A stretch of 45,644 nt of DNA from a virus, in IMG/VR virus record IMGVR_UViG_3300045988_113672. One strand, given 5' to 3'. How positions within the stretch are numbered: the stretch's first letter is position 1; every line of letters starts with the position of its first letter. The notes under the pieces are model-generated. The model did no database searches. It saw nothing but the letters and a program-made list of their open reading frames with translations, and had not been told where the DNA came from. Shown here piece after piece: positions 4,153-37,893 of this stretch. Made by a program: the position numbers and the translations under genes.

Positions 4153-4363
4153 GCGCAAGGCGCAGGTAAAGGCCATCTTCCGGGACGCCTACAACTGGTG
4201 GCTGGCCAACTGCAACCAGGACATGACGGAGCAGTTTTTTATCACCGCCGCCAGAGAGATGGTTAAATTGTCGGACGCGGGCGACCCGCTGAAGAACAGC
4301 CTCCTGCTGGCCGTATACGGCGAGTATGAGCGCATCGCCAGGGAGCAGCACCCCCATGATTGA
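4139..4363 (+). CDS. hypothetical protein
   Basis: ATG 4139 follows GGAGGA, and the gene is tightly packed with its neighbours. Confidence 0.55.
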   Translation: MDINERKAQVKAIFRDAYNWWLANCNQDMTEQFFITAAREMVKLSDAGDPLKNSLLLAVYGEYERIAREQHPHD

Positions 4364-4862
4364 CTACAGGCGCATCCGGGACGAGGTGCCCATGGCGCGG
4401 CTGTGCAGCCTGATCGGGATCCCCGTCCGGCACGGCTTTGCGGTGTGCCCGCTGCATCCCGACAGCAACGCCTCCATGCGCGTGTACCCGGGCGACAAGG
4501 GCTTTTACTGCTTCGGCTGCCATCAGGGCGGGGACGTGATCGACTTCCTGGCGCTGGTCACCAAGCAGAGCCGTTCGGACGCGGCGCGGCAGCTGGCGCA
4601 GACGTTTTGCGTGCCGGAGAGCAAGGCGGCAGCGAGCCGCAGGGAATCGATTTTAAGCAGGCAAAAGGCGCGCGAAAATCGCTTGCGCATGCGGGACATA
4701 GCAAATGCCTTGGCGGAGCTGTACCGCGCTCAGAACGCAAATATGAGCCGATACGCGCCATCCCTGCAAGACGCAGATAAACCATGGCCAGAGGCGTTTG
4801 AGATTGCGTGCAAGCTGCTGCCGGTGATCGACTGCGCGCTGACCATTGCGGACGAGAGGTGA
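4356..4862 (+). CDS. CHC2 zinc-finger protein (primase-type zinc finger; no Toprim seen)
   Basis: CPLHPDSNASMRVYPGDKGFYCFGCHQGGDVIDF is a classic zf-CHC2. ATG 4356 overlaps the upstream stop. Confidence 0.7.
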   Translation: MIDYRRIRDEVPMARLCSLIGIPVRHGFAVCPLHPDSNASMRVYPGDKGFYCFGCHQGGDVIDFLALVTKQSRSDAARQLAQTFCVPESKAAASRRESILSRQKARENRLRMRDIANALAELYRAQNANMSRYAPSLQDADKPWPEAFEIACKLLPVIDCALTIADER

Positions 4863-4869
4863 GAGAGAT

Positions 4870-7791
4870 TTGGACTTGAGCAAGCTGGGCACGCCGCAGG
4901 ACGTACCGCGGTTTCAGCGGGCGGACTTTGACGGCACAGCGCCCTACGACTACATATACAGATTCGCCGCCAACGCCTTCCAGATGATGCAGGTGTACAA
5001 CGTGGTGGCCGCGCAGGCAAAGGAATTAGGCGTAAAAAACTTTGCCAAGATGTTTGAATCCTATAAGCGCGTACAGCGCGGATCAGGCTACAACCTGGAC
5101 GTCGAGCAGGCGGCGACCAATTTCCCCGATCAGCCCATGGAGCTGCGCTGCGGGCGCTACACCTGCGACGCGGGCGGCGTAGCCTGCGAGGACAAGGGCG
5201 GCTATCACACGCTGGTGTGCAGCCATCCGCTGATGCCCGTTAAAAGGATGGAAAACATCGACACGGGCGAGCAGAAGGTGGAGATCGCGTTTTCGCGCGG
5301 CGGCGTGTGGCGCTACAACGTGGTGGACCGCACGGTGCTGTCCAGCGCCAACAAGATCGTAGACCTGAGCCGCTACGGCATGGATATTACCACCGAGAGC
5401 GCGCGGGATGTGGTCAAATACCTGGCTACGATCGACGCCCTTAATTACGACAAGATCGGCGAGGTGCGCTCCGTCGGCCGTCTGGGCTGGGTGGGGCACG
5501 AGCTGTTTTCCCCCTATGTGCCCGATCTGCGGTATGACGGCGATGCAGGCTATGCGGCGACGTACAAGGCGGTACACCCGCAGGGGACGCTTACGGGCTG
5601 GCTGGAGGCGGCGCGACATGGCCGCGAAAGCAGCGTGATCACCCGCGTGATGCTGGCCGCGGCGTTTGCAAGCGTGCTGGTGGAGCCGTGCGACGCGCTG
5701 CCCTTTGTGGTGCATGCGTGGGGAGGCACGGGAGCTGGAAAGGCGCAGCCGCTGGATACCCTGATCATTACCCCTGACGGCAGTAAACGAATGGGCGATA
5801 TGCGCGTTGGCGATCTGGTCATCGGCGGAGACGGAAAGCCGCACGCCGTGACAGGCGTATACCCGCAGGGTGTGAAGGATATCTTTGAGATTACCTTTGC
5901 GGACGGACGCAAGACGCGCTGCTGCAAAGAGCATTTGTGGAACGTAACGACCAGAACGCGCAGGAACTACGGTCGAGGATACAAGACCATGGAGCTGCAG
6001 GAAATGCTGACCAGAAAGCCCATCAAGACTGCAAAGGGCTATGAGTACCAGATTCCGCTTTGCAAGCCTGTCGAGTATTCTGACAGCGAAGCCCTGCCCA
6101 TTGACCCTTATCTGCTGGGCGCAATGATTGGCGACGGCTGCATGACCCTGAAGCAGAACAAGGCCAACTATTCGCGGAACCTGTATTTCAACAACTCGGA
6201 GGCTGATGTGATAGTCCGCGTATCTGCCAAACTGGAAAGACACGGCTCGAAGATGAAACGGAATCCGCATACAGCCAACCAGTTTATCCTTACAAACGCG
6301 AAATGGCTTAAGGACGCGATTGTAAATCTCGGGATGAATCAGAACAGCTACAACAAGTTTATTCCCGATATTTATATGAAAGCTGCTCCTGACGAACGCA
6401 GAATGCTTCTGTGCGGCCTGATCGATACGGACGGACACGTTGGAGAGAACGGTTCTGTGTCTTATTCTACATGCAGCGAACGCCTGGCTTACGATGTTCA
6501 GCGTCTTGCGTGGAGCCTTGGCTATAAGTCTACTGTTAGCATGTCGGTTCGCCGTGACAAGGATATGCCAGAATACACCGTTTGCATATCCGCCGATGAA
6601 GGCGTATTCCTATCCGAAAAGCATAGCTACAACAAGCTCCGCAGCGTCAATCGTAGGAATCGCGCTGAAGATAAAACAGCCATGTCTATCATCAGCGTAG
6701 AGCCATGCGGACAGGCAGAATGTCAGTGCATCATGGTTGATAGCGACGAGCACACCTATCTGTGCGACGATTTCATTGTGACGCACAACACCGTTGGCCT
6801 GATGCTGGCCGCTTCCGTGTGGGCTGACCCGACGGCGGGCGCGTATTACAGGACGTTTAACGCTACGGGCGTAGGCCAGGAGATGACGGCGGGATTCCTT
6901 AATTCGCTGCCGCTCTGCCTGGATGAATTACAGGTTATCAAGGACAAAAAGGACTTTGACCAGACCATCTACACCCTGTGCGAGGGCGTAGGCCGGTCAC
7001 GCGGCGCCAAGGCGGGCGGCCTGCAGCGCATGCAGACGTGGCGCAACGCCATCATCACCACGGGCGAGATGCCCATCACAAACGCGGACAGCGGCGGCGG
7101 CGCGGTGAATCGCGTGATCAACATGGACTGCCAGGATGAGAAGCTCTTTGCCGATCCGCGCTGGGCGGTATCCGTGATGCGCAGAAACTACGGCCACGCA
7201 GGACGGGCGTTTGTGGAGCACCTGACGGGCGGCGCGATGGACAGAGCGAAGGAGCTGCAAAAGGAGTACTACGCAAAGCTCACCGAGCAGGACAGCACCG
7301 AAAAGCAAGCCCTGAGCGCGTCCCTGCTATTGGCGGCGGATACCCTTGCGACGGAGCTGCTGTTTCAGGACGATCTGGCGCTGACGGTGGACGATCTGGC
7401 GCCCATGCTTGTCACCCGCGCGGAGGCCGACGTCAACGCCCGCTGCTACGAGTGGCTGACAGGCTTTATCGCGGTCAACAGCAACCGCTTTGACGAGAGC
7501 GCCGACAACAAGGGCGAGGTGTGGGGCAAGCTGGAAAACGACACGTGCTACTTTGTGGCAACCAAATTTGAACAGATCATGCGCGAGTACGGCTATTCCA
7601 GCAGCAGCTTCCTGAGCTGGTGCAGCCGCGTTGGCAAGATCAGGAGGCAGGACAACAAGCACTTTAAGAGCCTGCTGCGCATCCGCAAAACGCCGACCAG
7701 AGTGCTGCAGCTGCTGTTACCACCTGAGGGCTTTGTCGAGGTAGACGACGAGGACGAAATGCCATGGGAGCAAACAAAGGTAACGATGTAG
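4870..7791 (+). CDS. DUF927-like P-loop replicative helicase/NTPase, interrupted by an intein
   Basis: Walker A GGTGAGK|...|TVGL is split by the intein, and Walker B is LCLDELQ. The start is uncertain (TTG 4846, 4870 or 4876); 4870 has GAGGTGA upstream. Confidence 0.8.
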   Translation: MDLSKLGTPQDVPRFQRADFDGTAPYDYIYRFAANAFQMMQVYNVVAAQAKELGVKNFAKMFESYKRVQRGSGYNLDVEQAATNFPDQPMELRCGRYTCDAGGVACEDKGGYHTLVCSHPLMPVKRMENIDTGEQKVEIAFSRGGVWRYNVVDRTVLSSANKIVDLSRYGMDITTESARDVVKYLATIDALNYDKIGEVRSVGRLGWVGHELFSPYVPDLRYDGDAGYAATYKAVHPQGTLTGWLEAARHGRESSVITRVMLAAAFASVLVEPCDALPFVVHAWGGTGAGKAQPLDTLIITPDGSKRMGDMRVGDLVIGGDGKPHAVTGVYPQGVKDIFEITFADGRKTRCCKEHLWNVTTRTRRNYGRGYKTMELQEMLTRKPIKTAKGYEYQIPLCKPVEYSDSEALPIDPYLLGAMIGDGCMTLKQNKANYSRNLYFNNSEADVIVRVSAKLERHGSKMKRNPHTANQFILTNAKWLKDAIVNLGMNQNSYNKFIPDIYMKAAPDERRMLLCGLIDTDGHVGENGSVSYSTCSERLAYDVQRLAWSLGYKSTVSMSVRRDKDMPEYTVCISADEGVFLSEKHSYNKLRSVNRRNRAEDKTAMSIISVEPCGQAECQCIMVDSDEHTYLCDDFIVTHNTVGLMLAASVWADPTAGAYYRTFNATGVGQEMTAGFLNSLPLCLDELQVIKDKKDFDQTIYTLCEGVGRSRGAKAGGLQRMQTWRNAIITTGEMPITNADSGGGAVNRVINMDCQDEKLFADPRWAVSVMRRNYGHAGRAFVEHLTGGAMDRAKELQKEYYAKLTEQDSTEKQALSASLLLAADTLATELLFQDDLALTVDDLAPMLVTRAEADVNARCYEWLTGFIAVNSNRFDESADNKGEVWGKLENDTCYFVATKFEQIMREYGYSSSSFLSWCSRVGKIRRQDNKHFKSLLRIRKTPTRVLQLLLPPEGFVEVDDEDEMPWEQTKVTM
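5743..6789 (+). mobile_element. Intein (349 aa) with LAGLIDADG homing endonuclease, inserted in the Walker A P-loop
   Basis: The N-terminus is AQPLDTLIITPDG. Block B is CKEHLW. The LAGLIDADG motifs are LLGAMIGDGCM and LLCGLIDTDGHV. The C-terminus is CQCIMVDSDEHTYLCDDFIVTHN|T. Removing the element restores GTGAGKT. Confidence 0.85.
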
Positions 7792-7819
7792 CATGCAAGT
7801 TTCTCAAAATGGCAGAGCC

Positions 7820-8033
7820 GTAACCACTGTAACCACCGTAACCAATTCAAATCAAATATTATATTTTCTCGCTCTCTCTGTTTTTTGTCAAGAAGAAAAT
7901 GCGCCCTCGCGCACGGAAACAAAAATTTATGTCGTTACGGTCGTTACGGTCGTTACACGGGGAGAAAAAGCGAGGAATATCAACGGGTTTTGCCGCTACG
8001 ACATGTGGTTACGCAGTCGTTACAGGTGGTTAC
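7820..8033. repeat. Iteron array, putative phage replication origin
   Basis: GTAACC occurs three times at 9-bp period (7820-7843), followed by an AT-rich stretch (7844-7900). CGTTAC occurs three times at 9-bp period (7933-7956), then GGTTAC/CGTTAC/GGTTAC (8007-8033). The array lies directly after the helicase gene. Confidence 0.6.
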
Positions 8034-8058
8034 GCCCAAACAGGAAGGAAGATACGCA

Positions 8059-8454
8059 ATGAACGACTATCTGAGCGTCCGAGGAACGAGGGATTTTGCC
8101 CGCGTCAGCCCGGAGGAGTGTAGACAGTCCAGAATATCCAATAAAGGATATCACCAGCGGCCACGCGGGACAGCGTCGCAGATCGGCACGATGATCAGCC
8201 GGTATCTGTGCGACGGCCTGAAAAGCAGGTGCTGGGACTGCGAGTGCCTGGTGCAGTGCGAGTACGGCAAGCGGTACATGGCGCTGCTGCGCCAGCGGGA
8301 GGCGGACGCGGGACGGCCCTGGATGGGCTACAAGGCGGCCTTAAAGCCGGAGCTGGACGCGTACAGGATCAAGGTTGCGGAGTGGCACAGGCGGCAAGGC
8401 AACCAGAGCGCAAAAGGGAAACGGAGGAAGATGGATGCAGAAGATCACGGATAA
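8059..8454 (+). CDS. hypothetical Cys-rich protein
   Basis: ATG 8059 follows AGGAAGGAAG. The upstream part of track ORF 7885..8454 is just iteron DNA being translated. Confidence 0.6.
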   Translation: MNDYLSVRGTRDFARVSPEECRQSRISNKGYHQRPRGTASQIGTMISRYLCDGLKSRCWDCECLVQCEYGKRYMALLRQREADAGRPWMGYKAALKPELDAYRIKVAEWHRRQGNQSAKGKRRKMDAEDHG

Positions 8455-28509: not shown

Positions 28510-31500
28510 ATGAGCCAGCTATCTAAGGCTTACGAGAAAAACAAGAAGGTTCAGCAAAGCATTGCAAGCAATCTGCAAGAGGATGAACCCAAGAAGCAGC
28601 TGACTACCGTCTCGATGACGAGCAGCAAGCAGCAGCTCAAGCAGGTATTGCAGGAGCAGAAGCAAAAGGAGAAGAATCCTGTTCAGCGCAAGAACACGAA
28701 AATTGGCGCTTCGCAGTCTCCAAAATTTGTGCGCACTGCCTTCATCAGTCCGGTGCAGCCTATTGTCCGCACGCAGCCGTCCTCGAACCTGCAGCGGCTT
28801 TTGGCGAAGGTTGAGACGGATAACAGTTGGTATTCCGGCAGCACGCCCACCAGAAGCGAGGCGGCGGCGCGTATCTACACGATATCGCAGACTGACCCGG
28901 CGCGGGCAAGGAAGCTGAACCAGGCTTTTTCTCAGCTGCAGCGTGATCCTTCCAGCCAGTTCTACAATCCATACGGTTCTGCCACCAACAAGGCCATCCA
29001 GGAGCTTGCAAACCTTGGCGTGGATATGAGCGGCGGCATTACGGAGGACTGGCTGGCGAAAAATAGCTGGCTCAAAGCCTACTATCGCACCAGCGGCAAC
29101 AGCGGCACTCCCCTTGCGCCCACCAAGAACAGCACTGCCGAGCAGAACGCGGCGTACTACTACTATCAGATTCTCAAGGCGCAGGATACGACCAATCAGG
29201 CAGAAGCCGAGTGGAAGGCCCTGCAGGAGGAGATCGGCTACTGGGCGAACCGCAAGGACCGCAATTACAGCGACGATCAGATCATCAGCAGGATTGACTG
29301 GTCTAAGTACAAGACGCTGGCCAGGATGGACGACGGCGCGGCAAGCGGCGTGCCCCTGACGCTGAACAGCTCCATCGGCTACAGCCAGGACGCGCTGAAG
29401 GGCGTGATCTGGGCGGCGCGCAACGGCAGCACCGGCAACCCGCTGGCTGACAGCGCGAAGGCCGTTTTGGGCGCGGGCAAGACCTGGCAGGAGGACAAGA
29501 AGATCAGCGCGAAGCTCGATCCCAGCAGCAAGGCGTACAGCCCGTACTCCGTGGGCAGCACGCTGGACGATGCGGCGCTGTACTTTGGCGTGGATTCCTT
29601 CAGCAAGGACTGGCTTGAAAACAACCGTAACATTCTGGCCGGCAACGACGCAACGGCCAAGAAAATGTATCAGACGGTGTACAATGCGGAGCAGACCACG
29701 CTGAAGGCCGAGCAGGAGCTGGACGAGCTGCACGCCAGCATTGACCGCTATCTTGAATCGACCACTGACCCGGATCAGATTCTGCGGATGATTGACGGCG
29801 AGTACAAGACGCTGGACAGCCTGGACGAGAGCATGCGAGAGGGCAAGCTGATAGGCACGACCCGCGCGATCGACTACCGCAAGCAGGATATCGAGGCCGA
29901 GGTACGCCGTCGCTGTCTGGCCAAGAATACGCAGATCAACGGCGCGGACTATGTGGGCGCTGTGTGGAAGCTGCTGGGCCTGCCGGAGGTAAAAACCGAG
30001 GCCATTTCGGCTGTGGGCGCTTCCCGCGATAACGCGATCAACGCTGGCGGCGCGACCATTGCGGACGCTGGCACGGACGAGGAAAAGACCGTATTTAAGA
30101 CTGCGTACAGCAGCGATTTTGACACCTATCTGACGCAGATCAAGGGCGCGATGGATAGCGGCGTATCCGACCCGCAGGGCGGCTATGACTACACGCTCAA
30201 GCGCGCTGACCAGTATGCGGCCGAAAACTACATGGACGCGATGGACACCGTTTTGACCTACGAGGAAGCCCAGCAGGCCAAGGATGAAGCCATCAGGAAG
30301 CTGAACGACCTGGGCGTTGTCTACGATGAAGACGGCAACATCGACATGAGCAACCGCAAGGGCAGCCTGATTGTGCCGGGCGCTGATACGGCGATGGCTG
30401 CTGCCGGCATGAGCGATGCGCCAAGAAAGCTGCGCAAGACCAGCGATGATACGGCTGATGAGATCGACATGCTGCGCAAGGAGATTGCCAGCGGTTATGG
30501 CAAGGACGAGAAGGGAAAGCGCGTAAAGCTGACGGATGAGGAAATCGAACTAAAGCATTCTCAGCTGCAAGCGCTGCTTCATCCCGAAGCCATCACTGCG
30601 ACGCAGAAGGAGATCAACCAGCTGCTGGCCGTGGTGGACGAAAGCACCGAGACCATGGAGCGCACACAGAAGTCCTATGATAAAGCCAATATCACGCTGA
30701 AGAACATCACCGAGGGCTATTCGGTTGCCGACCGGATGCAGGCGCTGACCGGCGTGAAGGCCGGCGACAGCGATTCCACCCTGGCGCAGATGACTTATCT
30801 GTTCAGCATTGCGCGCAACTATGAGCCGACCGAATATCGATCTGCCAACCTGTATGCGCTGGCCATGGACGGGCAGGGCGCGACCTACGAGGAAACGGCG
30901 GCGGCTGCCAGGCAGGGCATGGCGGAGAACAAGCAGATGATCGAGCAGATCAATTTTGCACTGGGCGAGCTGGAAAGCAAGGGCGCGCATCTGCCGGATG
31001 ACAAGATGGAAAACGTCAAGCGTTATGTCGCTGCGCTTGAGCGCGACGTGCAGGACGCTGAATATTTTCTTTTGCGGGAGAACGACGATTACTACCAGGA
31101 GTCGCAGGACGTAAGCAACGAGATTTTTGCGGCCTGGCAGGATTATAACGAGCTGAACCCGCTGGGCATGCTGAACCCATTTGCCGACCGGAAGGGCTAT
31201 ACGGCGCTGGATAACGTGGTGGCAATCCGGCTTGAACAGCTGCAAATGGAGGAAGCCAGCAAAACCATTGGGCGGAACCTGAAATCTGACAAGGTGATCA
31301 TGTCCACTGGCAACCCGGCGAAGGACGGTTATTACACAGAGGATATTAACCAGCTCAGCAAAAACGAGTGCATGACCTACCTGTACATTCGCGGCAAGGA
31401 GGGCGTGGACGCTGCGCAGGAATACTACGACCATTTGACCAACGCGGAGTACGGCGTAATCAACATGCGCCGCAATCTGGACTGGACGGCGAAGGCGCAG

Positions 31501-34500
31501 GAATTTGCGGATCAGAACGCTGTGACCGGCGCGCTTGCTTCCGCGCTGACCGTCATTGCTTCCCCTCTTACTGTGGGCGGCATGGTGGAATCGATCAAGG
31601 CTGATGTGCTGGGGCAGGAGCTTAACCCCTACGCGCGCGGCTTTGTGTACGGCAACATGAGCGGCACGGCGCGTGCGACGGTCAAGGAGAATATCTCCGA
31701 ATCTGTCGGCGGTGGCGCCGGCGGATGGCTGCTGGGTGCGCTGTATGACGCTTTGATGAGCTACGGCGATTCGATGGTGAGCAGCTACTTCATGGGCGGC
31801 CTGGGTTCTGCTGCCGGTTCCGGCGCTGGCAAGCTGCTGGCAAAGACAGGGCTGACCGAAAATTATGTCAATCTCGCGTCCAATGTGGTATCTTCCTTTG
31901 TGACGGCTTCCGGCCAGGGCATGCAGGCGGTTGGCAACGCCATGATGGACGCAAAGCTGCGTGGCGCGACCCCCGACGAAGCGCGCGTACTTGGCCTTGT
32001 TACCTTCCTGGCTGAGACCGCGACGGAAGCGATCGAGGTTGAGACCATCGATTCTGCCATTCACGGCGGCGCTGAACGGGAATTCAAAGACACGTTCAAG
32101 AAGCTGCTGTTCAACATGTTCAACGAGGGCGCGGGCGAGGGCGTATCCGAATTGGTGGAGGGCATGGCCGACAAGGTTGTGATGGATTACAAGTCCAACT
32201 GGGCTGAATCCGTACAGCGCTATATTGACGAGGGCATGACCAAGAAGCAGGCCGAAGACGCAGCCTGGAAGGAGATCCTGTGGAACGCTGCGGAAGCGGC
32301 GGCTGTTGGCGGAATCTCTGGCGGCCTTGGCACCGGCCTGGGCTATGTACAGGGCCGTATCTTTGGCGATGGCAGCCAGACGCAGGACGCTGTGCAGCCA
32401 ACTGCCGAGACCGTGCAGCAGACGCAGCAGACCGCGCAGGAAACCGTCCAGCAGACCGCACAAGAGCAGACCCAGCAGGAAGCCCCGACGATTGCGCAGG
32501 AGACGCAGAACGCCGATGTGGAGAATGCTGCGCCTGAGACCGCAGAAGCCGCCCAAACGCCAAATACAAAGGAAGAAACGCAGCCCTTTGACACGGGCGA
32601 ACGGCTGACGCAGTATGAGGTAAATGAAAAGACCGTGCGGCAGGTGACGGCGCTGACTGCATCCCTGGAGGCGGACGAGGCCAGCCAGACGGCGACCATC
32701 GGCGCGGCGCTGTTGGGAGATAACGCGACCCCGCAGGAAACGGCCTTTGCCTCCGCGGCGGCGCAGCACATGACCGACACCCTGGGCAGCGACGCGGCTG
32801 TGCGGTTTACCCGCGACGTGCTGCTGCTGGACAGCGACACCAACGGCGTGCGCGCGGCGCTGACTGTTGCGGCGCTGAACAAGGGCGGGAACGCCAGCCA
32901 GGTTGCGCAGCGTATGGCGCAGGAGGGCGTAACGGCTGAGGGCATTCAGGAGCTCAAGGCGGCGGCTGACCTCGATGTGCAGGACGCGAACGTGACCGCG
33001 CAGATGCAGCAGACCGTGCAGGAGAACCAGGTGGCATTGCGCACGGCGCAGCTGATTGGCGACGGCGCGCTGAAAGCCGTACAGCCCTACGAGACGGCGG
33101 TTGCCCAGGCGAAAAGCGTATTGCGCCAGGCTCAGGGCGAATTGCGCAGGCAGGTAAAGCGCCGGGAAGGGCTTGGGCAGAATCTCCTATCTTTACAGGA
33201 ACAGATCAACAGCGGCACGGCGACCCCGCAGCTGCTTGATACCTTTAGATCGACCGTCAAGGACATTGAAGGCCAGATCAAGGTTGTAAACGAGTACACC
33301 CAGCGCGTGGCCAACGCCGAGCAGTCGCTGCACGACGCGCAGAACCAACTGGACACTGTACGCGACGATACGCTGCGGCAGGTACGCCAGCAGGCGCAGC
33401 AGGACGTGGCCGACATGCAGGCGCAGCAGCTTGCGGAGCAGGAGGCGGCGAAGGCTGAACAGGCGCAGCAGGCCGAAGCACAGGAAAAGACCGGCTATCA
33501 GAAGAAGCAGTTTATCCCCTATGATGGCCCTGTCCCGCAGACCGTTGACAATGTGCAGCAGGAAACCGTCGCGATTGACGATGCAAGCTATGCGCAGGTG
33601 CAGCAGATTGTGGAGGATGCGCAGGCGGATTCTGAAACGAAATCTGGCGTGCGCAGCCTGGTCAAGAGTGCGTTGCGCGCTGTGTTTGGAAGCCGATTCG
33701 ATCAAACGCAGGTAACAGTAGACAACGTGCAGTTTGACGGCCAGCCGTATACCGTGACGCTGTTCAAGAATCTGATCAACAAGGTAGTTTCCGACCCGAA
33801 CATGACAACGGAAAAGCTATCGGTGCTAAGCAACATAGAACAGGTCCTCAAGAACGCAATATATGAAACAAGCTCCGATGTTGACAGGAGTCGGCAAAGC
33901 AAGGAACGTGTTGTAAGGTACGATTACCTGTCCTCGCGCACAAAAATAAACGGCCAGGATTACAATGCAATCCTTACCGTTGAAGCGTATGACTATCAGA
34001 ACAAGATGAAAACCTATCGTCTTGAAAACATAGAAATGACGCCTGTCGATTTCCCGTCCGCCACCGGTTACGCACCGGCGCTCGCAGAAACCGACCAGAA
34101 CCAGGTACAGTATCGGTTACGTACCGACCCTCCGGATTCCGTGGCGTCTTCTAATAGTATATTAGCATCCGATGCCGAAAATGTCAATACTGAAAATATT
34201 TCTAATTTGGAATCGCTGAACGATGCGAATGTGCAGGCTTCCTACGGCGTTCCCGGCGTAACGAGCACTGGCAAGAGCGGAACGACCGGCGCAGTTGTTA
34301 GCCCCATCGTGACCGCGCAGAATCTTGCCAAGTCGCTCGGCGTAGGCATGACGCTTGGCACGCGCAAGATGGATACCGGCAGCACGAAGATACCCAAGGC
34401 GGTGCGTGGATATTACGAGCAGAACGCAAAGTATATCGCTGTGCGCTCCAACGAGGCGAGCAGCTATGCGGTAACGATGCACGAAGCCGGGCACGCCATT

Positions 34501-37500
34501 GCAGATAAGATTGGGCTGACCGGCACGCAGGAAATGGTGGATCGGCTGAACCCTGTATTCGCAAAGAATTATAATGCGCAGCAGCTTCCCGGTGAAGCCT
34601 TTGCGGAGTTTGTCAGTTTGTACATGCGTGATAGTCGTATGGCAGAAGAATTTGCAGGCAGCGACTTTATGCGTACGTTTGAATCTGCACTGCGCCGCGC
34701 AGACATTGACAAGGCCGTGCATCAGGCGCGCGACCAGATTCAGACATATGCCGCTGCCTCCACGCTGGACAGAGCCAAGGCCGGCATTATCGATCAGGCC
34801 GATGCGCAGCGCAAGGACAGCATGGCTGAAAAACTTCGCGACTTTGTGACGAACGTTGCCGACTGGACGCGCCCGCTTGAAGACGTGGACAAGGCTTTTG
34901 CGGCCAGCAACGATGGCCAATACGGAAACGTGAGGCAGACTGCCAAGAAGCGCAACTTCGCTGACAGAATCGTTGAAAGCCTGTTCACCAACGCCATGAC
35001 CAACGCTGACCATACGATTATTGGCGAGAGCTTCAGTGCGGCCTTTGAAGGCATTGATGGCAAAAATGCAGATGACTTTATTACCTATGGCCTGCTTAAA
35101 CACTCCCTGAGCAGAGATGTGCAGGGAAAGCAGGTGTTTGCCAATGACCTGACGCACGATCAGCGCGTTGAAGCTGTTCGGCAGATTGAAGAAGCCAGCC
35201 CGCAGTATAAGGAAGCCTTAGATAAGTTTGAAAAAACCTGGCATCAGTTTATGCAGGCTTGGATGGTGGATACAGGTTATCTATCTCAGGAAGCATTTGA
35301 CCGCATGAACGAGATGTATCCCTACTGGTTGCCAACCGTCCGTGCGCGCGAAGGAAAGGTGCGCGGCGGCGGTAGGCGCGGCACGTTTACAATCCACCAG
35401 GCTACCGGCAGTGATCTGCAAATTATCAACCCCATTGACACGATTGCCAACTATGTAACCCGCATCGTGGACATGAATCTGCGGAACAACGTGGCGATTG
35501 CCTTTGACGAGGCATACCAGACCAGCAATGGCATGGGCATTTGGGCGCGTGAGATTACGCAGGATATGCGCAGAACGGCAGTTAACACCGAGGACGTGCA
35601 GCAGCGCGTGAACGACATTCTGTCTGAAGCTGACATAGACACAGACGTGATCGGCAATGTGCTTGAAGCCATCGGCCAAGAAGCGGTTAGCTGGCAGGGG
35701 ACAAACACCAGCACCGAAGGAGATACCCTGTGCGTGGTACGCCGTGATGGCACGAATGCCTATTACCAGTTTGACGCGGACGGGCGGGCGATCTATGAGG
35801 CCCTGACTGGCAACGGCAAGGCGGTTCATTCCGAGACCCGACGCGCCCTGAAAGCATTCTCGAACGTCACGTCCTTTGTCAGTAGAATGGCGACGACATA
35901 TGCTCCGACCTTTGCCATGACCAACCCCATCAAGGACTTGCAAAGCAGTATTTATCACGGCTCCTGGGCCAGCAACTATTTGACCGGCATTGTGAAATGG
36001 TTTGTGTCAGCCTACGAAGTAACCACGAATAGCCAAGGCGTGCAGGAGTACAAAGCGCAGGGCGGCGGCGGATGGAATCAGATTCAGACGGGCTTCCGCA
36101 AGGGCGCAGACGAATACCGCGGGAAGCTGTTTGAAGGTTACTGGAAGCGTGATGCAAAGAGCATTGCAAAGCACATCGGAGAGACGGCGCTTGACGTGGT
36201 GACGCTGGACAGGCTGAATGATATCATTGAAACCGCATCGCGTTACGCCGAATACCGTTTTGGCAAGCATGATCTGAGCACGCCGGAAGGACGCGCGGAA
36301 GCGTTCCAGGCGGCGCAGGATGTTACCACCGACTTTGCGAATGGCGGCAAGGGCGCAGGCGTTCTGATTGCACGCAGCATTATGCCGTTCCTCAACCCCA
36401 ATATTCAGGGCACTTATCGTGCGAGCCTTGAACTGAGCGGGCGCGAGCGCGGACGGCTTGGAGCCAGAATGACCAAGCGCATCGTAAACACGATGTTCCT
36501 TTCTGCCCTTGCATCTGTTATAAGAGCGCGTTTTGGCAGCGACGAAGATAAGGATTTGTACGGTCGAATTTCTGACGGCGTGAAGACTTCCAACCTTATT
36601 ATTCCCAACGTCTTCAATCGTGACAGCGACAGGCGCTTTGTCCGTATCCCTATTTCGCAGGACCCCTTGGATCAGGCGCTATATACGCTCACCACGTCCG
36701 CCATTGACGCTTACAACGGAGATGATGACTTCATCACGGAGCTGCTGGCCGGGGCAAGTCAGATCGTTAGCAACGTAACGCTGGGCGCGTCCGATCTCCT
36801 ATCCGAAGGCAGCCTGCCTGAACGCCTGAACGGCTTTATGCAGGGCACTATCTTTGGGCCTGCATGGGGCCTGATTACCAACCAGACCTACTACGGCGGC
36901 AAGATCGTGGGCGATTATCTGGACGAGCTTAGTCCTGTATCGCAGTACGACGAGACCACCAACGATATGTTCATCTGGCTGGGTGCGCGCCTGGGCGTAT
37001 CGCCGAAGCGGCTGGAATACCTGTACGATCAGTATACTGGCTACGCTGGGCAACTGCTGATGGCTGTTACTGACGGAGATAACGCGCTCAAGACAACGGT
37101 AAATACATTCCATAAACGCCTTACGATTGATCCGGCGTATACGAACGACATTTCCAGCGCGTATTCGGACAACAAGGCGTTTATCAGTCAGCTGCAAAAG
37201 ACGATTTCGAAAACCGGCACTGACGGCAAAATGCTGCGTAGCGGCCTGACCGAGGATGAACGTTCGCAGGCATACGAGGAAATCAAGGCCATGAACAAGA
37301 AGGGCGGTCTGCTGAAGGATACCAACGATCAGATTTCTGAGCTATGGAACGAGATTCACGCTGTGCAGGACGACGAAACAAAGACCGAAGCTGAACGGAG
37401 AACGCTGATCCTTCAGTATCGAGATCAGATCACCGATTTGCAGTTGAGTTTCAACGAACAGTTTGGACAGTTCCAGGCAAAGTACGTAACCGGTGAAAAC

Positions 37501-37893
37501 CCGTTGACGAAGATGCTGCTTGACCCGCAGAGCGTGAGCGCCTATACCGCGTATGATAAGCTGGATGATACGTTCAAGTCCGATGAGGATAAGGCGTACA
37601 TGCAGCTTGCGCGTGCGGCGTGGGAGAAGACCAAGAACGCAAGCGCGCTGCCGCATCCGAACAGCGATTTTAGCGTCAACGAAACGACCTATGAAATCGG
37701 CGATGACGACTGGCAGGCATACACGGCGGAATACAAGCTGGCCTACTCCGACTACCTGCTCAAGAACTCCGCAAAGTGGACCATCCTGTCGGACAGCGAA
37801 CAGGTTGAATTGCTGAAAGAAGCCCACAAAAAGGGGCATGAAGCAGCGAAGAAGTGGTACATGGCCAAGTACGGAATAAAGGAGAAGCGATAA
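28510..37893 (+). CDS. giant 3127-aa polyvalent-type protein with an HExxH zincin motif and a Gly-rich hydrophobic core
   Basis: It is a single uninterrupted ORF. HEAGH lies at aa 1991-1995 (nt 34480-34494) with a downstream GEAFAEF. A Gly-zipper/TM-like region lies at about nt 31500-32350, and a Q/T-rich linker at about 32380-32580. Confidence 0.85.
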   Translation: MSQLSKAYEKNKKVQQSIASNLQEDEPKKQLTTVSMTSSKQQLKQVLQEQKQKEKNPVQRKNTKIGASQSPKFVRTAFISPVQPIVRTQPSSNLQRLLAKVETDNSWYSGSTPTRSEAAARIYTISQTDPARARKLNQAFSQLQRDPSSQFYNPYGSATNKAIQELANLGVDMSGGITEDWLAKNSWLKAYYRTSGNSGTPLAPTKNSTAEQNAAYYYYQILKAQDTTNQAEAEWKALQEEIGYWANRKDRNYSDDQIISRIDWSKYKTLARMDDGAASGVPLTLNSSIGYSQDALKGVIWAARNGSTGNPLADSAKAVLGAGKTWQEDKKISAKLDPSSKAYSPYSVGSTLDDAALYFGVDSFSKDWLENNRNILAGNDATAKKMYQTVYNAEQTTLKAEQELDELHASIDRYLESTTDPDQILRMIDGEYKTLDSLDESMREGKLIGTTRAIDYRKQDIEAEVRRRCLAKNTQINGADYVGAVWKLLGLPEVKTEAISAVGASRDNAINAGGATIADAGTDEEKTVFKTAYSSDFDTYLTQIKGAMDSGVSDPQGGYDYTLKRADQYAAENYMDAMDTVLTYEEAQQAKDEAIRKLNDLGVVYDEDGNIDMSNRKGSLIVPGADTAMAAAGMSDAPRKLRKTSDDTADEIDMLRKEIASGYGKDEKGKRVKLTDEEIELKHSQLQALLHPEAITATQKEINQLLAVVDESTETMERTQKSYDKANITLKNITEGYSVADRMQALTGVKAGDSDSTLAQMTYLFSIARNYEPTEYRSANLYALAMDGQGATYEETAAAARQGMAENKQMIEQINFALGELESKGAHLPDDKMENVKRYVAALERDVQDAEYFLLRENDDYYQESQDVSNEIFAAWQDYNELNPLGMLNPFADRKGYTALDNVVAIRLEQLQMEEASKTIGRNLKSDKVIMSTGNPAKDGYYTEDINQLSKNECMTYLYIRGKEGVDAAQEYYDHLTNAEYGVINMRRNLDWTAKAQEFADQNAVTGALASALTVIASPLTVGGMVESIKADVLGQELNPYARGFVYGNMSGTARATVKENISESVGGGAGGWLLGALYDALMSYGDSMVSSYFMGGLGSAAGSGAGKLLAKTGLTENYVNLASNVVSSFVTASGQGMQAVGNAMMDAKLRGATPDEARVLGLVTFLAETATEAIEVETIDSAIHGGAEREFKDTFKKLLFNMFNEGAGEGVSELVEGMADKVVMDYKSNWAESVQRYIDEGMTKKQAEDAAWKEILWNAAEAAAVGGISGGLGTGLGYVQGRIFGDGSQTQDAVQPTAETVQQTQQTAQETVQQTAQEQTQQEAPTIAQETQNADVENAAPETAEAAQTPNTKEETQPFDTGERLTQYEVNEKTVRQVTALTASLEADEASQTATIGAALLGDNATPQETAFASAAAQHMTDTLGSDAAVRFTRDVLLLDSDTNGVRAALTVAALNKGGNASQVAQRMAQEGVTAEGIQELKAAADLDVQDANVTAQMQQTVQENQVALRTAQLIGDGALKAVQPYETAVAQAKSVLRQAQGELRRQVKRREGLGQNLLSLQEQINSGTATPQLLDTFRSTVKDIEGQIKVVNEYTQRVANAEQSLHDAQNQLDTVRDDTLRQVRQQAQQDVADMQAQQLAEQEAAKAEQAQQAEAQEKTGYQKKQFIPYDGPVPQTVDNVQQETVAIDDASYAQVQQIVEDAQADSETKSGVRSLVKSALRAVFGSRFDQTQVTVDNVQFDGQPYTVTLFKNLINKVVSDPNMTTEKLSVLSNIEQVLKNAIYETSSDVDRSRQSKERVVRYDYLSSRTKINGQDYNAILTVEAYDYQNKMKTYRLENIEMTPVDFPSATGYAPALAETDQNQVQYRLRTDPPDSVASSNSILASDAENVNTENISNLESLNDANVQASYGVPGVTSTGKSGTTGAVVSPIVTAQNLAKSLGVGMTLGTRKMDTGSTKIPKAVRGYYEQNAKYIAVRSNEASSYAVTMHEAGHAIADKIGLTGTQEMVDRLNPVFAKNYNAQQLPGEAFAEFVSLYMRDSRMAEEFAGSDFMRTFESALRRADIDKAVHQARDQIQTYAAASTLDRAKAGIIDQADAQRKDSMAEKLRDFVTNVADWTRPLEDVDKAFAASNDGQYGNVRQTAKKRNFADRIVESLFTNAMTNADHTIIGESFSAAFEGIDGKNADDFITYGLLKHSLSRDVQGKQVFANDLTHDQRVEAVRQIEEASPQYKEALDKFEKTWHQFMQAWMVDTGYLSQEAFDRMNEMYPYWLPTVRAREGKVRGGGRRGTFTIHQATGSDLQIINPIDTIANYVTRIVDMNLRNNVAIAFDEAYQTSNGMGIWAREITQDMRRTAVNTEDVQQRVNDILSEADIDTDVIGNVLEAIGQEAVSWQGTNTSTEGDTLCVVRRDGTNAYYQFDADGRAIYEALTGNGKAVHSETRRALKAFSNVTSFVSRMATTYAPTFAMTNPIKDLQSSIYHGSWASNYLTGIVKWFVSAYEVTTNSQGVQEYKAQGGGGWNQIQTGFRKGADEYRGKLFEGYWKRDAKSIAKHIGETALDVVTLDRLNDIIETASRYAEYRFGKHDLSTPEGRAEAFQAAQDVTTDFANGGKGAGVLIARSIMPFLNPNIQGTYRASLELSGRERGRLGARMTKRIVNTMFLSALASVIRARFGSDEDKDLYGRISDGVKTSNLIIPNVFNRDSDRRFVRIPISQDPLDQALYTLTTSAIDAYNGDDDFITELLAGASQIVSNVTLGASDLLSEGSLPERLNGFMQGTIFGPAWGLITNQTYYGGKIVGDYLDELSPVSQYDETTNDMFIWLGARLGVSPKRLEYLYDQYTGYAGQLLMAVTDGDNALKTTVNTFHKRLTIDPAYTNDISSAYSDNKAFISQLQKTISKTGTDGKMLRSGLTEDERSQAYEEIKAMNKKGGLLKDTNDQISELWNEIHAVQDDETKTEAERRTLILQYRDQITDLQLSFNEQFGQFQAKYVTGENPLTKMLLDPQSVSAYTAYDKLDDTFKSDEDKAYMQLARAAWEKTKNASALPHPNSDFSVNETTYEIGDDDWQAYTAEYKLAYSDYLLKNSAKWTILSDSEQVELLKEAHKKGHEAAKKWYMAKYGIKEKR

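Follow-up and report, generated by a model that had tools for sequence, protein, structure and literature searches.

The virus record IMGVR_UViG_3300045988_113672 of IMG/VR, a stretch of 45,644 nucleotides referred to here as the window, contains on its plus strand a single uninterrupted open reading frame (ORF) at 4846..7791, listed with 981 amino acids, which encodes the precursor of a DUF927/Cch-type ("MCM-like") helicase. Its N-terminal part (N-extein; 4846..5742, +) ends in the first part of the Walker A motif (...HAWGGTGAGK), while its C-terminal part (C-extein, including the stop codon; 6790..7791, +) begins with the Walker A threonine (TVGLMLAASVWADP...). Between the two lie 349 codons (AQPLD...VTHN; 5743..6789, +; codons 300-648) that are predicted to encode a Hint domain interrupted by a LAGLIDADG homing endonuclease. 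We consider it highly probable, on the evidence presented below, that this segment is a class 3 intein of full length, equipped with a LAGLIDADG homing endonuclease and situated in the Walker A motif (K|T) of a phage DUF927/Cch-type replicative helicase.

Translation of 5743-6789 (+) yields AQPLDTLIITPDG...DDFIVTHN, preceded by HAWGGTGAGK and followed by TVGLMLAAS, which is exactly the 349-residue element, with the flanks, that a preliminary description of the window had placed within the helicase. Along this segment the motifs follow one another in the order AQPLDTLIITPDG...CKEHLW...LLGAMIGDGCM...LLCGLIDTDGHV...ECQCIMVD...DDFIVTHN. To locate the insertion point, the window helicase was aligned with three intein-free orthologues, encoded by Anaerostipes phage AC844P2, Roseburia phage Jekyll (annotated as "MCM-like DNA helicase") and R. 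gnavus phage phiRg507T2_3 (gp42, annotated as "helicase"). All three read straight through the site as WG(G/E)TE(A/G)GK-(T/S)V(A/S)LM(L/V)A(A/T)SVWANP, and the window helicase reads WGGTGAGK-(349 aa)-TVGLMLAASVWADP at the same site. Since the intein-free orthologues are seamless here, the insertion point falls precisely between lysine and threonine of Walker A; the P-loop position between the invariant lysine and the threonine has been described as a "classic" intein site (Kelley et al. 2016, PMC5050341). Deletion of the 349 residues in silico results in WGGTGAGKTVGLMLAASVWADP, in which GTGAGKTVGLM constitutes a canonical Walker A motif, and the earlier proposal that excision regenerates a GTGAGKT P-loop is borne out, with the insertion point now fixed at K|T by comparison with intein-free homologues. 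At the DNA level, the fused P-loop-coding sequence without the insert is ...GGAGCTGGAAAG|ACCGTTGGCCTG..., and the junction peptide of the spliced helicase would span ...GAGK-TVGLMLAASVWADPTAGAYYR, giving a mature protein that would comprise 632 amino acids.

Alternative boundaries, and with them a class 1 reading, were considered and rejected, as the residues around the N-terminal junction offer no Cys, Ser or Thr that could regenerate GxxxxGK[ST]; the class 1 reading is further ruled out by an alignment in which Cys1 of the gp41-1 intein stands opposite Ala1 of the insert. A six-frame phmmer search of the window with the intein returned the intein itself as the sole match and no second intein.

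The matches of the insert in NCBIfam, Pfam and PDB sequence searches are Hint, LAGLIDADG and intein-containing proteins. Among the Pfam models, LAGLIDADG_3 (49.9 bits, cut-off 22.5) and Hom_end (28.1 bits) scored above their cut-offs, whereas the Hint models Hom_end_hint (21.9 versus 32.1) and Hint_2 (16.5 versus 28.4) remained below theirs; the Hint assignment therefore draws on PDB sequence matches, a structure model and alignments. In the PDB, phmmer detected the gp41-1 intein (1.5e-11 and 1e-9, N-terminal lobe) and, at 6e-7 to 6e-6, the DnaB1 inteins of class 3 from M. smegmatis (6BS8) and M. chimaera (6RIX, 6RIY); matches of this strength lie well outside chance. The AlphaFold2 model of the insert, computed with a 73-sequence alignment as input, has a mean predicted local distance difference test score (pLDDT) of 92.2 and a predicted template modelling score (pTM) of 0.91. 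With this model, Foldseek returned TliVMA as the best match (1.4e-19), followed by PI-SceI, PhoVMA and PI-PfuI; E-values for TliVMA, PI-SceI and PI-PfuI run from 1e-19 to 1e-12, template modelling (TM) scores against PI-SceI/TliVMA are 0.63-0.75 (PI-SceI at 0.70-0.75), and the probability is 1.00 for 16 intein or homing endonuclease structures and for mini-inteins. Matches confined to the Hint part were gp41-1, MchDnaB1 and the M. smegmatis DnaB intein of class 3.

The homing endonuclease domain, supported by Pfam and by alignment to PI-SceI, occupies approximately residues 110-300 of the insert (6070..6642, +). It includes the first LAGLIDADG motif, LLGAMIGDGCM (residues 124-134; 6112-6144, +), with the acidic residue D131; block D, NKFIPDIY (6352-6375, +), with the lysine K205; and the second LAGLIDADG motif, LLCGLIDTDGHV (LLCGLIDTDG; residues 222-233; 6406-6441, +), with the acidic residue D230. 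The two motifs named in the preliminary description were thus both located, with their acidic residues retained and Pfam scores above cut-off. The endonuclease residues align with KNIPSF...LAGLIDSDGYV of PI-SceI, both acidic residues and the block D lysine being present. Taken together with the model, these matches allow us to assign the insert confidently to a predicted Hint splicing domain plus LAGLIDADG endonuclease domain.

Class 3 inteins are recognized by the lack of a nucleophile at A:1 together with Trp at B:12, Cys at F:4 and Thr at G:5, the +1 residue being usually Thr or Ser (PMC2807308, PMC5050341, PMC3196547). For comparison, the Bethlehem prototype was taken from its genome, where it is a 341-aa insert with Gln-1, Pro1, His65, Trp67, Cys320, Thr339, Asn341 and Thr+1. 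These residue numbers match those used by Tori et al. 2010 (PMC2807308), who assigned Trp67 to B:12, Cys320 to F:4 and Thr339 to G:5 and mutated these residues.

In the window insert, position 1 is Ala (GCG, 5743-5745) rather than Cys, Ser or Thr, and hence not a nucleophile; block A (AQPLDTLIITPDG; 5743..5781, +) aligns to C1-L-D-L-K-T... of gp41-1 and to MsmDnaB1. Block B (GRKTRCCKEHLWNV; 5905..5946, +) contains His64 (B:10; 5932-5934), aligned to Bethlehem His65, and, two residues further, Trp66 (5938-5940) in the column of Bethlehem Trp67 (B:12). In block F (ECQCIMVDSDEHTYLC; 6718..6765, +), the predicted branch-point nucleophile Cys329 (F:4; 6727-6729) falls in the same column as Bethlehem Cys320, the Cys of Catera gp206 (VRCITV), that of MsmDnaB1 (VRCVEV) and the one engineered into gp41-1_WCT. 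Block G with the first C-extein residue (DFIVTHN|T; 6769..6792, +) provides Thr347 (G:5), in the column of Thr339, as well as His348 (G:6), Asn349 (G:7) and Thr+1 (6790-6792), T347-H348-N349|T+1 being aligned to T339-H340-N341|T of Bethlehem. A joint alignment with the Bethlehem, Catera gp206 and Eggerthella phage helicase inteins showed the His, Trp, Cys-Ile, Thr-His-Asn and Thr+1 columns, which hold H64, W66, C329-I330, T347-H348-N349 and T+1 of the window, to be invariant. In HMMER alignments, the W, C and T of the window likewise stand opposite those of 6BS8 and of the engineered gp41-1_WCT (6RIZ). Moreover, tblastn revealed similarity over the whole length to the validated class 3 inteins of Bethlehem (4e-24) and Catera (3e-25); the gp206 intein of the latter has been reported to splice (PMC3196547).

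The assignment from which we started, an initial Ala together with a W in CKEHLW, a C in CQCIMV and a T in VTHN (residues 346-349), is column-identical in its W, C and T with B:12, F:4 and G:5 of Bethlehem and needs a single refinement, namely that of the two cysteines in CQCIMV (Cys327 and Cys329) it is the second that represents F:4. All tests that could be made at the sequence level support a candidate class 3 intein, every residue by which the class is defined being present in the 349-aa insert; the W, C and T align nowhere but at these three positions, and comparison with homologues does not mark the segment as a native helicase domain.

Compared with the prototype, the Bethlehem "DnaB" intein (MP-Be DnaB, in the terminase large subunit gp10; PMC2807308), the window intein has the same combination of Hint and LAGLIDADG domains (341 versus 349 aa), a non-nucleophilic first residue, His B:10, Trp B:12, Cys F:4, Thr-His-Asn and Thr+1, and both are phage-borne and reside in an ATPase. 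However, the two are only about 27% identical, and the Bethlehem intein has Pro1 instead of Ala1, lies in a different host protein, is inserted after Gln-1 rather than at the Walker A K|T, and lacks the additional cysteines at B:6, B:7 and F:2 that are found in the window intein. As an aside, the host of the Bethlehem "DnaB" intein is now labelled as terminase large subunit, an inconsistency in the public record. The DnaB1 inteins of M. smegmatis and M. chimaera (6BS8, 6RIX, 6RIY) are likewise class 3, interrupt the P-loop of a replicative helicase, and match the Hint part in both sequence and fold, but, at 139-146 aa, they are mini-inteins from which the endonuclease has been lost, and they are located in DnaB encoded by bacterial chromosomal genes. 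Among solved structures, gp41-1 (6QAZ; 32-34% identity by Foldseek) is the nearest in sequence to the Hint N-lobe and shares ...EHL(F/W) and the terminal THN; in contrast to the window intein, it belongs to class 1 (Cys1, Asp F:4, Phe B:12), is naturally split, has no endonuclease, and derives from a cyanophage-like DnaB-type helicase. The best whole-molecule fold matches, the PI-SceI/VMA-type inteins (1VDE, 1EF0, 7QSU; TM 0.63-0.75), have the same two-domain layout and endonuclease motifs, yet they use class 1 chemistry (Cys1, Cys+1), are hosted by eukaryotic or archaeal V-ATPases and are only about 17-19% identical.

A far larger set of relatives emerged from database searches. A word-indexed search returned 124 database proteins at E ≤ 1e-5, and a family alignment of 95 sequences was built from the window insert and 94 complete database copies. 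All 95 sequences have His B:10, Cys F:4 and Thr-His-Asn, and 89 have Trp B:12. At position 1, 85 sequences have Ala, seven Glu, two Gly and one Ser, so that 94 have neither Cys, Ser nor Thr there; of the 94 database copies, 84 carry Thr and 10 carry Ser at +1. The endonuclease residues are retained in most sequences (D131 in 76/95, K205 in 86/95, D230 in 86/95). The host proteins are varied P-loop nucleoside triphosphatases (PhoH, AAA_24, DnaB, RecA, SNF2, AAA, DnaX, ABC, terminase and DUF927), nearly all of which are interrupted at GK|T or GK|S, while PhoH has a second recurrent site, GR|T. This PhoH-like ATPase site, which is not a Walker A motif, reads ...AY(L/M)RGR|AQPL...THN|TF... (P0009, P0011, P0012, P0040, P0056, P0139, P0143 and others).

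The members with the AQPLD...ECQCI...THN|T pattern in P-loops form one subfamily with the window intein, sharing its signature and its K|T (or R|T) junction; their full-length identity to it is 31-40% in unrelated hosts, 40% for the Eggerthella phage LE2-3 helicase intein, and 52-62% in DUF927 helicases. In other hosts, these subfamily members are mostly unannotated or labelled only "homing endonuclease" or "HNH endonuclease". The latter label is also given in many Bixzunavirus (Catera-like) mycobacteriophage records to the region of the gp206-type class 3 intein, the domain of which is of the LAGLIDADG type. Signature residues are invariant across five diverged helicase alleles.

An exhaustive search gave 20,275 cluster representatives at E ≤ 1e-3, 14,011 at E ≤ 1e-10 and 4,865 at E ≤ 1e-30, totals that also take in other endonuclease-bearing inteins. 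The top 149 proteins contained 194 full-length copies, 183 of which end in THN and 117 of which start with Ala. That class 3 inteins are comparatively rare, as the preliminary description put it, is correct for the short curated lists (37 WCT inteins in 2010; PMC2807308) but not for metagenomes: judging from these matches, the AQPLD...QCI...THN|T subfamily is abundant there across many unrelated ATPase families, and class 3 inteins are therefore not rare in phage sequence space. Many metagenomic proteins hold two to five such inteins per polypeptide (e.g., P0131, P0132, P0258), and tandem, back-to-back copies occur in at least one protein (P0142: ...IVTHN|CTTEDT...).

The base composition of the insert is foreign to the helicase gene. 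Its overall GC content is 51.6%, and its GC content at third codon positions (GC3) is 62.5%, compared to a GC3 of 80-81% in both exteins (0.80 in the N-extein, 0.81 in the C-extein). The same dip is seen in a helicase allele from a metagenome-assembled genome (MAG) of the Eubacteriales (L008), in which GC3 is 0.31 for the insert versus 0.51-0.52 for the exteins. Furthermore, when the window helicase was compared to four other intein-bearing alleles, the identity of the inteins (56-62%) exceeded that of the exteins (27-55%), the extreme case being an allele (L009) with a 57% identical intein and exteins that are only 27-28% identical. The insert was found in at least eight metagenomic or MAG helicase alleles, while 11 records of the phage collection (H1-H11) match the helicase in two pieces without it, as confirmed by alignment for three of the 11. 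Intein-bearing and intein-free alleles stand side by side in related phages, and the distribution is sporadic. The GC3 dip, the discordance between intein and extein identity, and the sporadic distribution together form, as far as such comparisons can indicate, the pattern that is produced by homing. The free intein, or its endonuclease domain, would spread in this way by cleaving the DNA that encodes the P-loop in alleles without an intein.

On the basis of the homologous inteins of Bethlehem, Catera (gp206), Dra Snf2 and Msm/Mch DnaB1, we infer that the insert splices, that it does so through a branched intermediate, and that its endonuclease is active. The precursor, with its P-loop split, could not bind ATP productively, and the helicase would remain inactive until splicing, an argument that parallels the one made for P-loop inteins of DnaB and RadA (PMC6195587). 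After folding, Cys329 (F:4) would attack the Lys(-1)-Ala1 bond, activated by His64 against which Trp66 would pack, to give a branched intermediate with a thioester in block F. The N-extein would then move to the hydroxyl group of Thr+1, resulting in the standard block G branch; Asn349, helped by His348, would cyclise and release the intein; and an O-to-N acyl shift would produce GTGAGK-TVGLM and hence the intact helicase.

Three other explanations of the segment have to be weighed against an active class 3 intein. It is almost certainly not an accessory domain native to this helicase lineage, such as a Hint/LAGLIDADG module that was domesticated for DNA binding and is kept in the mature protein. 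Several related helicase alleles do have the segment at the same position, but orthologues without it are seamless at K|T, the segment splits the essential GxxxxGK[ST] motif, its composition is foreign to the gene, and nearly identical modules are found at the K|T of unrelated ATPases (PhoH, AAA_24, DnaB, RecA, SNF2, terminase, DnaX, ABC); moreover, the strict conservation of the terminal HN|T and of the nucleophile makes sense only for splicing. An intein that follows the class 2 (KlbA-like) route, in which Thr+1 would attack the N-terminal amide directly and Cys329 would be structural or regulatory only, appears very improbable to us. Although Ala1 is also a hallmark of the KlbA class 2 inteins (PMC7664689, PMC2807308), and sequence alone gives no direct readout of mechanism, the known class 2 inteins are confined to KlbA and lack the WCT triplet (PMC2807308, PMC3196547). 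Here a helicase serves as host, the insert has the complete W/C/T triplet, Cys F:4 is invariant throughout the family alignment, and the homologue of Cys329 in the Bethlehem prototype, Cys320, is an absolute requirement (PMC2807308).

The third alternative, which we regard as improbable though less so than these two, is that the intein has decayed to a non-splicing pseudo-intein, or to one capable of cleavage only, leaving the helicase non-functional in a defective prophage or dependent on another replicon. Several points favor this alternative and weigh against a functional class 3 intein. When W, C and T were grafted onto the gp41-1 intein together with C1A, C-terminal cleavage predominated and splicing was nearly absent (PMC7664689); the WCT triplet is thus required for activity but does not suffice to prove it. 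Arth_1007, a natural class 3-like intein that persists in a prophage remnant, is an inactive pseudogene, yet it lacks Cys F:4 and His B:10 (PMC3196547). The exact helicase sequence is missing from a collection of 15 billion proteins, an intein that no longer splices might survive for some time if the window were a defective prophage, and splicing of the precursor is a prediction from homology. Residue B:7 normally contacts the N-terminal scissile bond, and in the window it is Cys instead of Thr, Ser or Asn, as it is in 58 of the 95 aligned sequences. In the Bethlehem prototype, however, B:7 is non-essential (PMC2807308). Decay is further argued against by an ORF that is intact over 981 codons, by the retention of all catalytic residues (H64, W66, C329, T347, H348, N349, T+1), by the invariance of these same residues in the five diverged helicase alleles and the wider family, by exteins that are both well conserved relative to intein-free orthologues, and by a phage gene set in the window that looks complete.

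Cys329 is surrounded by additional cysteines that are lacking in the class 3 inteins studied so far, namely Cys60-Cys61 (B:6 and B:7) in block B and Cys327 (F:2) in block F; Cys341 is additionally present in the alleles of DUF927 helicases. The C-C-C-C pattern at positions 60, 61, 327 and 329 occurs in 35 of the 95 aligned sequences. These residues might act as a built-in redox or zinc switch, in which Cys329 would be locked into a disulfide or a metal site, a suggestion made by analogy that we consider unlikely to be correct. A redox precedent is the Cys48-Cys118 toggle of M. smegmatis DnaBi1 (PMC6195587), and both redox and zinc control have been shown for the DnaB1 mini-inteins (PMC6195587, PMC7360933). 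If such a switch did exist, helicase maturation, and hence phage replication, would be conditional on the reducing state of the anaerobic gut host.

For annotation, our results mean that the helicase should be treated as one 981-aa precursor with an intein and not as a disrupted or fused gene. The window intein is a further example of a known pattern, that of phage-origin class 3 inteins in P-loops (Tori 2010; Kelley 2016). Among the papers searched, none names an intein together with DUF927, and DUF927/Cch-type helicases appear to be an unreported intein host. Full-length class 3 inteins that are apparently active and combine a THN end with Thr+1 may also interest protein engineers (PMC12245125), and for such engineering the window intein is a reasonable choice.

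The assignment of the host gene is based on Pfam matches to DUF927 (PF06048; 103 bits, cut-off 22.6, 3e-29), which is divided in two by the insert, and to HTH_56, the Cch C-terminal domain (PF18662; 53.4 bits, cut-off 26.2, 3e-14). As the NCBIfam Cch1 equivalog scores 44, far short of its cut-off of 700, the DUF927/Cch assignment holds at the family level only. Orthologues in phages of Clostridia carry the labels "helicase" or "MCM-like DNA helicase". The helicase gene has no ATG start. The ORF delimited by the program has TTG 4846 as its first codon, within the final part of the upstream primase gene (stop codon 4860-4862), and TTG 4870 is preceded by a Shine-Dalgarno-like stretch, GAGAGGTGAGAGAG, and by the stop codon of that upstream gene; from the sequence context, TTG 4870 or TTG 4876 seems a more plausible start than TTG 4846. 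This uncertainty about the start codon leaves the intein finding unaffected. On the minus strand, an ORF of 451 aa (5083-6438) covers part of the N-extein and half of the intein and is probably a by-product of high GC content.

The gene immediately upstream of the helicase (4326-4862) encodes a primase zinc-finger protein, and other genes of the window encode exonuclease VIII, RecT, MazG, the terminase large subunit, a portal protein and a major head protein. This set of genes for recombination, primase, helicase, terminase, portal and capsid indicates a tailed-phage or prophage genome. Megablast identified no close DNA relative of window positions 1-25000 among deposited phages. Relatives of the helicase are encoded by phages of Anaerostipes, Roseburia and Ruminococcus gnavus and by Eubacteriales/Clostridia MAGs, and from these protein relatives we infer that the window probably represents a Clostridia/Eubacteriales phage of the temperate type or a prophage. 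In the tail-gene region, downstream of head/tail-like genes, a single ORF (28510-37893, +) reaches 3127 aa, uncommonly long for a phage genome of some 45 kb.

Directly downstream of the helicase, the intergenic region 7793-8060 is AT-richer (GC content of about 45-49%) and contains short repeats. Three tandem 9-bp units of GTAACCAC(T/C) at 7820-7846 are followed by an AT-rich spacer and, at 7931-7957, by three tandem units of GTCGTTACG that are inverted relative to those at 7820-7846, the 23-nt arms being 87% complementary; GTGGTTACGC occurs two further times at 8005-8035. The pattern GTAACNNNNGTAAC has four matches in the window, all of them within 7793-8060, versus 0.03 expected. By their arrangement, these repeats are a candidate iteron or operator array and may possibly mark a replication origin beside the primase/helicase module.

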